Below are positions 42,292 through 42,697 of a stretch of DNA of 64,000 bases, piece after piece. The translations under genes were made by a program, and so were the position numbers. Numbering within the stretch: position 1 is the stretch's first letter; the number at the start of each line of letters is the position of its first letter. This DNA comes from a virus, in the IMG/VR virus record IMGVR_UViG_3300005821_000002, positions 1 to 64,000 of that record; one strand, 5' to 3'. The notes beneath the pieces are model-generated. The model saw only the letters and a list, made by a program, of their open reading frames with translations. It searched no databases and was not told where the DNA came from.

Positions 42292-42501
42292 TCACCAATT
42301 CTTCCAGTTACATATACTTTCCCAATGTAATAATCCTCTACGATGAGGGTCTCTCCAAGCACGACGACGAGCTTTACTCAAACGTCGTTTGTAGTAACGA
42401 CCCTCTCCTCTACTACCCCATCTACAACAAATGCTTCCATTTACTACTTGAATTTTCTTACCAAACTCTTTCCATGTTCTACGGTAATTCTCTTTATGCA
42501 T
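42292..42501 (-). CDS. Small Arg/Lys/Trp-rich basic protein
   Basis: MHKENY... starts on the last base of the RNase P RNA. Confidence 0.5.
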   Translation of the reverse strand: MHKENYRRTWKEFGKKIQVVNGSICCRWGSRGEGRYYKRRLSKARRRAWRDPHRRGLLHWESICNWKNW

Positions 42502-42697
42502 GACAACTCCGTAACCAGGATTCTGTTTTATCCCTACATCCATCTATGCCACAACCACACCCTTAGCCCTGCTCACCAGCTAGGTAAATTTGTGTTGCTC
42601 CCTCGGTAGTATAACGGGTTTCCCCTTCCACCTTAAGCAGAGGAGTCCTGAGTTTCCTCTGACGGCATGAAGCCATCAGCGTAGGGTCAAGTTGTCA
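42501..42697 (-). ncRNA. rnpB: Minimal RNase P RNA (type A-derived catalytic domain)
   Basis: P1 TGACAACT/AGTTGTCA, P2 CCCTAC/GTAGGG, P3, GAGGAAACTCAGGA pairing with ACAGAATCCTGGTTA (P4), P5 CTCC/GGAG, P6 CTGCT/AGCAG, TAGATGGAT. Confidence 0.85.

Follow-up and report, generated by a model that had tools for sequence, protein, structure and literature searches.

Genomic Context of the Miniature RNase P RNA Gene

On the minus strand of the window, which is the whole 64,000-nt stretch of viral DNA analyzed here (positions 1 to 64,000 of the IMG/VR record IMGVR_UViG_3300005821_000002), positions 42500-42698 hold a gene of ~199 nt for a miniature RNase P RNA (P RNA), identified by a global match to the Rfam family RF00010. 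It is part of a tRNA operon on the same strand (38.2-44.7 kb), in which a tmRNA of 251 nt accompanies 27 tRNA genes. The P RNA is immediately preceded by tRNA-Cys(GCA) with an encoded CCA (42698-42772, minus strand), recognized by both ARAGORN and Rfam, and the 5′ end of the P RNA abuts or overlaps A76 of this tRNA. Directly downstream is orf69 (42292-42501, minus strand), which encodes a basic, Trp-rich protein of 69 amino acids. The original prediction that the RNA belongs to a phage tRNA operon is thus borne out by the 27 tRNAs, the tmRNA and the tRNA-Cys directly 5′ of it.

The array's first tRNA is closely preceded by a sigma-70 promoter (44727-44755, minus strand) consisting of TTGACA, a 17-nt spacer, a TG and TATAAT, with 12/12 matches to the consensus. 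This promoter likely drives the operon containing the P RNA, and no terminator-like site was detected on the same strand between the two, except for a weak one at 44220-44233. In the metatranscriptomic data, which consist of assembled contigs, one 227-nt contig spans 42577-42803; the two runs contributing the largest share were flagged as probably DNA, and coding and non-coding regions were covered alike, at low depth.

The original prediction had suggested that the P RNA perhaps processes atypical tRNAs and ncRNAs of the phage. The phage tRNAs are canonical in appearance except for their 3′ ends. All 27 encode C74-C75, and in 23 of the 27 (window 38188-44716, minus strand) N73-C-C is followed by T instead of completing CCA, which is encoded only in the His, Cys, Leu(taa) and Lys(ctt) tRNAs. 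Such regular CC-U ends look like a rule rather than chance. Since no match to a CCA-adding enzyme (PF01743) was present in the phage genome, trimming and A76 addition by the host would be required. In addition, eight tRNA pairs in the array are spaced by merely 2-5 nt.

Several other features of the operon were observed. The tmRNA (41551-41801, minus strand; RF00023, 77.8 bits) was not called by ARAGORN and is compact, the usual length of this RNA being ~350 nt. Also uncalled by ARAGORN was a tRNA-like sequence at 43480-43566 (minus strand) that has a long variable arm and weakly matches tRNA-Sec (26 bits, E 0.018); with UGA in its anticodon loop, it may represent an atypical tRNA-Ser, the 28th tRNA of the phage. 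Directly ahead of tRNA-Cys and the P RNA, the operon includes a protein-coding gene (42773-43438, minus strand), whose 221-aa product combines a hydrophobic segment at its N-terminus with an SLT lytic transglycosylase domain (E 6e-11).

The viral record is complete (96,486 bp, with direct terminal repeats), and identical DNA was found in metagenomes from marine sediment and the subsurface. Among the proteins of the phage are a DNA polymerase of family A, a ribonucleotide reductase and a DnaB-like helicase. Close relatives in culture are lacking: the identity of the DNA polymerase to those of GenBank phages does not exceed 28%, and a blastn search of the window region against GenBank phages gave no match. 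We infer a bacterial host, given the sigma-70 promoter, the presence of a tmRNA and the type A of the P RNA. Elsewhere in the window, ~16 kb (12001-28000) that include an amidoligase-like gene have a GC content of 31%, versus 37-46% in the rest.

Identity and Structure of the Miniature P RNA

The Rfam model of bacterial type-A RNase P RNA (RNaseP_bact_a, RF00010) matches positions 42496-42698 on the minus strand over model positions 1-367 with 58.9 bits (E = 4.9e-17 in a 1.6-kb search and 7e-19 in the entire 96-kb genome), and this is the single match in the phage genome. In a cmscan with competition within the RNase P clan, RNaseP_bact_a was the top model at the locus and two lower-scoring clan matches were suppressed; neither the archaeal nor the type T covariance models were the best match. 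A covariance-model match of the kind that the original prediction had proposed to look for was therefore obtained, end to end and with the bacterial type-A model best in its clan. The ends are inferred at 42698 or 42697 (5′) and 42500 or 42501 (3′), in agreement to within 1 nt with the earlier placement at 42501-42697 (~197 nt).

The score of 58.9 bits falls below the curated gathering cut-off of RF00010 (100 bits), solely because ~170 model positions (P8-P14 and P18) are absent; scoring under the cut-off, the gene is overlooked by annotation pipelines. At family level, the RNA departs from RF00010 in two respects, its sub-threshold score and its lack of an S-domain and of P18. Our own covariance model (R1, described below) gives 180.9 bits on the window copy, which was itself among the sequences from which R1 was built. 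When folded as a single sequence, the RNA is only modestly better than its shuffled versions (z -2.4), and the weight of evidence for its identity lies in the covariance-model match and the covariation, not in the single-sequence fold.

All helices of the type-A catalytic domain other than P4, that is P1, P2, P3, P5 and P15-P17, as well as the P6 pseudoknot, are present and covarying (all coordinates below are on the minus strand). P1 has 10 bp (5′ strand 42689-42698, partner 42500-42509); in 53 viral homologs all ten of its pairs covary and 87% of cells are paired. The 5′ strand of P2 (CCCUAC, 42681-42686) pairs with GUAGGG at 42532-42537. P3, placed by the RF00010 alignment and by pair counts in a MAFFT alignment, is a 7-bp hairpin (42660-42678) that differs in length between homologs. 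It is followed by J3/4 (GAGGAAA) and the 5′ strand of P4 (together 42646-42659, recognized by pairing and invariance). In P4, AAC(U)CAGGA (42654-42646) pairs with UCCUGGUU (42520-42513), and the bulged U, which had been predicted to be kept, is found at 42651; the 3′ strand of P4 and J2/4 (ACAGAA) together occupy 42513-42526, as placed by the RF00010 alignment and by pairing.

P5 (CUCC/GGAG, 42598-42645) encloses what remains of the specificity domain and is 92-99% paired. Between its strands there are 40 nt, compared with ~150-190 nt in full-size RNAs, and in the RF00010 alignment ~36 nt stand in for ~135 specificity-domain positions of the model. This remnant includes a P7-like helix of 5 bp (GGUGG/CUACC, 42605-42632), which is 92-94% paired with covariation at every pair, and is capped by a GGG-GAAA-CCC hairpin (42625-42616), the shape of which is conserved among homologs while its sequence is not. 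In the P6 pseudoknot, CUGCU (42640-42636) pairs with AGCAG in loop 17 (42573-42569). J5/15 (CAA) and then P15-P16-P17 follow P5 (42550-42597, by alignment), with UGGU in L15 (42554-42557; GGU at 42554-42556) conserved in most homologs. J18/2 (AGAUGGAUG, 42537-42545 by the RF00010 alignment) has no P18 before it, the 24 model positions of this helix corresponding to 0 nt. Hence an intact P6, the replacement of P8-P14 by a single GGG-GAAA-CCC hairpin and the loss of P18, all described by eye in the original prediction, were each located in the RNA.

Covariation and Conservation among Viral Homologs

Three pattern scans of IMG/VR yielded 59 P-RNA loci from other phages. R1 was built from the first eight sequences and matches 54 of the 59 loci in addition to the window's own copy. 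Covariation was assessed by aligning 13 miniature RNAs with MAFFT, blind to structure, and counting pairs on a hand-drawn structure including P2/P4 and the P6 pseudoknot. In this alignment, 81.7% of cells were paired, versus 60.2% in shuffled alignments and 36-45% in controls with a slid structure. The covariation score was 0.509 versus 0.168 after shuffling, the observed value being reached in 0/500 shuffles, and the slid controls gave 0.08-0.14; changes on both sides were seen in 47 of 60 pairs. When 53 distinct P RNAs of viruses were aligned to R1, the paired fraction of cells was 89.8%.

The same holds for individual helices. In the MAFFT alignment, P4 was paired in 100% of cells, P2 in 97% and both P5 and P7 in 92%, while P6 was paired in 85.5% with all five of its pairs covarying. 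Over the two sets (13 miniature RNAs and 53 viral P RNAs), P4 was 99-100% paired with four covarying pairs. R1 contains neither P2 nor P6 in its structure, yet P2 was 91-97% paired and five of its six pairs covary. Covariation in P4 and P2, singled out beforehand as the decisive helices, was consequently found in both.

Residues of the catalytic core are also conserved, including J3/4 GAGGAAA (kept in 48-50 of 50 aligned homologs), the bulged U of P4 (50/50), J5/15 CAA (47-50 of 50) and L15 GGU (32-33 of ~40), all of which are outside the search pattern that yielded most of the homologs. The invariance of J18/2 and J2/4 (ACAGAA) was partly imposed by the search patterns and is not counted as evidence. 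By these comparisons, purifying selection on the miniature P RNA is demonstrated, alongside its homology, structure and operon context. Judged from its sequence, the RNA descends from bacterial type A and has the core architecture of that type, and it is best described as a real, selected gene carried by the phage. The claim of a reduced type-A P RNA is thereby upheld by the Rfam match, by covariation in P1-P7 and P15-P17, and by homologs in other phage tRNA arrays.

Size Classes and Distribution

The lengths of viral P RNAs form a continuum from ~160 to 400 nt. The smallest class (160-169 nt) has P5 closed by only 6-8 nt; each of its members (L015, L028, L035, L056 and L058) abuts the 5′ end of the downstream tRNA. 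The RNA of the window belongs to a class of ~200-216 nt with a stub of 40-58 nt, together with L002, L004, L005, L007, L008, L021, L045 and L006, the last of which scores 118.5 bits against RF00010. Intermediate RNAs have 230-310 nt and full-size ones 330-400 nt. Most homologs up to ~310 nt share the strand of a tRNA array, and many adjoin a tRNA within 5 nt, on one side or on both; L004 and L005 sit outside dense arrays.

The nearest relative, L079, has the same order of tRNA-Cys, P RNA and small ORF as the window. Its P RNA (L079:3708-4004, plus strand) is 297 nt long, has three additional hairpins (one each in the stub, at the position of P18 and in J2/4), and differs from that of the window by compensatory changes in P1, P2, P5 and P6. 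The extra hairpins together with the compensatory changes indicate that the periphery has been remodeled fast while the core was held, peripheral elements being quickly gained or lost inside one phage lineage.

When one genome per GTDB species was scanned for the miniature pattern, 14 matches were obtained in prokaryotes, of which L067 was the single true miniature RNA. This contig (JBOGJG010000375.1, 1,542 bp) is binned in an Acidobacteriota MAG and contains 13 tRNAs, a tmRNA-like segment and a miniature P RNA of 193 nt; in all likelihood it is a mis-binned phage fragment. Two matches in Patescibacteria (L063 and L070) were rejected as full-size P RNAs of ~325 nt on the basis of Rfam, and the R1 match of a third, L073, spans 344 nt. 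As far as the search pattern reaches, the miniature form is, by these sequence matches, viral.

P RNA genes were also identified in cultured phages. The genome of Microbacterium phage A3Wally contains an unannotated miniature P RNA of 221 nt (RF00010, 72 bits) at L076:1313-1533 (plus strand), corresponding to ~93,852-94,072 of MZ150783.1, where it occupies the entire interval separating tRNA-Pro(ccg) from tRNA-Pro(cct); the record of a sister Microbacterium phage matches this RNA as well. The jumbo Microcystis phage MaAM05 contains an unannotated full-size type-A P RNA of 400 nt (RF00010, 251.8 bits) at L075:1462-1861 (plus strand), or ~115,284-115,683 of MW495066.1, in an intergenic gap away from tRNAs. 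Because both phages are cultured, the function of viral P RNAs is directly testable.

Protein Partner

The protein subunit RnpA binds only catalytic-domain elements of P RNA. No match to RnpA (PF00825) at E ≤ 1 was detected in the complete phage genome, the same search having detected RnpA in 10 of 14 control genomes. Since the phage has no rnpA gene, RnpA of the host would most likely be recruited.

The small protein encoded by orf69 has a pI of 11.2, contains 20 Lys and Arg among its 69 residues, and possesses the core motif GRYWKRxLSKARRRAW. It is conserved in 12 metagenome proteins, and showed neither a Pfam or PHROG match nor similarity to Ribonuclease_P. The GGAG ribosome-binding site and the ATG of orf69 are located within or at the end of the 3′ strand of P1. 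Excision of the P RNA would therefore leave the orf69 mRNA nearly leaderless, and, because the 3′ end of the P RNA overlaps this ribosome-binding site and start codon, the locus is also under coding and translational constraint. Two homologs of orf69 (P0002 and P0008) carry false N-terminal extensions that are the translated 3′ part of a P RNA. As a general P RNA cofactor, orf69 was rejected: 28 of the 29 viral loci encoding a relative of orf69 have no P RNA within ~4 kb, and such a relative is encoded at 0 of the 59 P-RNA loci collected from other phages.

Proposed Function and Alternative Explanations

Taken together, the conserved architecture suggests that the miniature RNA is probably a catalytic RNA which, with RnpA of the host, matures the phage pre-tRNAs by recognition of their acceptor ends; expression, RnpA use and catalysis are what we infer here. 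The P RNA would be co-transcribed by the host RNA polymerase within the tRNA/tmRNA operon from the sigma-70 promoter and released by the enzymes that trim the flanking tRNAs, so that its 5′ end would be made as the 3′ end of tRNA-Cys. It would then fold into P1-P5 and P15-P17 with a metal-binding P4 containing the bulged U and the P6 pseudoknot, the P7 stub taking the place of P8-P14, and would bind the host RnpA, a compatible RnpA being assumed. This hybrid enzyme would cut the 5′ leaders off the 27 pre-tRNAs of the phage. In type-A enzymes, L15 GG pairs with C74-C75 of the tRNA (Kirsebom's RCCA interaction); the phage enzyme may hold its substrates through L15 GGU at C74-C75, J5/15 at the -1 residue and the protein at the leader, and the T-loop/D-loop elbow, normally read by the lost domain, would play no part in recognition.

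It counts against this proposal that isolated catalytic domains are far less efficient in vitro than full-size P RNA, that the Rfam score is under the cut-off, and that the region is also constrained by the start of orf69. In the work of Mao et al. (2018, PMC5839562), the catalytic domain of the E. coli RNA alone cleaves substrates, with or without C5 protein, and efficient cleavage depends on a P6-like pairing; loss of the S-domain reduces activity, and P18 adds nothing once the S-domain has been removed. Retention of P6 together with loss of P18, as in the phage RNA, would be expected from selection for a working enzyme that comprises the catalytic domain only.

Several other explanations have to be considered. 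The reduced activity described after S-domain loss (PMC5839562), the retention of the protein-binding regions of the catalytic domain and the absence of rnpA from the phage genome would all suit a non-catalytic decoy or regulator that soaks up host RnpA or pre-tRNA 3′ ends and so halts or redirects host tRNA maturation. We regard such a role as quite improbable, considering that the residues involved in chemistry (the bulged U of P4, the J3/4 adenosines and J5/15 CAA) are invariant, that L15 GGU, which holds the CCA end of the substrate, is kept as well, and that the phage's own 27 tRNAs would be starved of processing. Even less can be said for a decaying, functionless fragment of a host rnpB. 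Phages do acquire host RNA genes, and full-size P RNAs are also present in viral contigs; however, dozens of divergent phages show extensive compensatory covariation and an unchanging core, the deletions are clean and take out whole modules, and synteny with the nearest relative L079 holds, all of which makes this origin extremely improbable.

It is also conceivable, if unlikely, that the RNA is catalytic but independent of host RnpA, acting either by itself or together with some phage protein outside the known families. The obvious candidate is orf69, which is very basic and conserved, directly follows the P RNA both here and in L079, and has two database homologs whose extensions derive from a P RNA; nevertheless, 28 of 29 loci with a relative of it lack a nearby P RNA and 0 of 59 P-RNA loci encode one, as given above, and it has no Pfam or PHROG match and no similarity to Ribonuclease_P. 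As for an enzyme free of protein, such activity is generally known to need unphysiological salt concentrations. The RNA could, finally, be a specialized processor, its main substrates being packed tRNA-tRNA junctions, the tmRNA or structured spacer RNAs of the operon, which a full-size enzyme that measures the elbow would handle badly. Loss of the elbow-reading domain is expected, from what is generally known of the S-domain, to relax requirements on substrate shape, and the narrow spacing of eight tRNA pairs and the tmRNA in the same operon would fit such a role. On the other hand, some family members (L004 and L005) sit outside dense arrays, the RNase P of the host is known to process the tRNA clusters of phage T4, and the present data do not separate a special role from general tRNA processing, so that we consider this specialization doubtful. 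General maturation of the phage pre-tRNAs with host RnpA is accordingly our preferred reading. For the family as a whole, we incline, at slightly better than even chances, to the view that phages carry working RNase P ribozymes which have been repeatedly pared (~160-300 nt) to the catalytic domain and use host RnpA.

Relationship to Known RNase P RNAs and Implications

E. coli M1 RNA, the product of rnpB, is a type-A P RNA (RF00010) of 377 nt. With type-A RNAs of RF00010, the phage RNA has in common J3/4-P4 with its bulged U, J5/15, L15 GGU, J18/2 and J2/4, and the P6 pseudoknot of J5/7 with loop 17. Compared to M1, it is about half the size: P8-P14 and the conserved regions of the S-domain have been replaced by a P7 stub hairpin of ~28 nt, and P18 and all interdomain braces (L18-P8, L14-P8, L8-P4 and L9-P1) have been lost. 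In contrast to cellular type-A RNAs, it is encoded by a virus, in a tRNA operon and in a genome without a gene for the RnpA partner.

Reduced P RNAs have also been obtained by engineering. A catalytic-domain-only P RNA was reportedly engineered by Wu and colleagues (2012 J Mol Biol). The phage RNA resembles the engineered Eco CP RPR, as described by Mao et al. (2018, PMC5839562), in having a C-domain without an S-domain, in keeping P6 and in dispensing with P18. It differs from engineered C-domain RNAs in being natural and conserved and in keeping a conserved P7 stub with an asymmetric internal loop.

In archaea, the type T P RNA of Pyrobaculum and other Thermoproteaceae is ~200 nt in length and its specificity domain is nearly gone (Lai et al. 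2010 PNAS; PMC3579882). Like it, the phage RNA is a natural P RNA of ~200 nt that has lost nearly the entire specificity domain; however, type T has an archaeal sequence and archaeal protein partners (Rpp30, Pop5 and others), whereas the phage RNA has the bacterial L15 GGU and P6 and is type A by covariance-model score. The likeness to type T drawn in the original prediction therefore stands as an analogy, in size and S-domain loss, and fails as a family assignment, the phage sequence being bacterial type A. By sequence, the two RNAs are convergent reductions in separate families.

RNase P RNA is regarded as a universal cellular ribozyme. In the open full-text literature, including a review of RNase P from 2024 and a study of its evolution from 2026, no description of a phage- or virus-encoded RNase P RNA was found. 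What is new here is the reduced form of an otherwise known family of ribozymes, and the kind of genome that carries it. If the proposed function is true, these would be the smallest natural P RNAs of bacterial type and the first encoded by viruses, and would represent a phage-specific enzyme by which tRNAs are recognized through the acceptor end only. With it, the phage could control tRNA maturation on its own during takeover, or process dense arrays that the host enzyme handles poorly. In addition, a conserved natural family consisting of the catalytic domain only would demonstrate that, in a bacterial context, RNase P can do without its specificity domain in vivo, and the series of sizes (~160, 200, 300 and 400 nt) would help to work out the minimal ribozyme. 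Finally, the translation-related functions of large phages, such as tRNAs and tmRNA, would be extended by tRNA 5′ processing.
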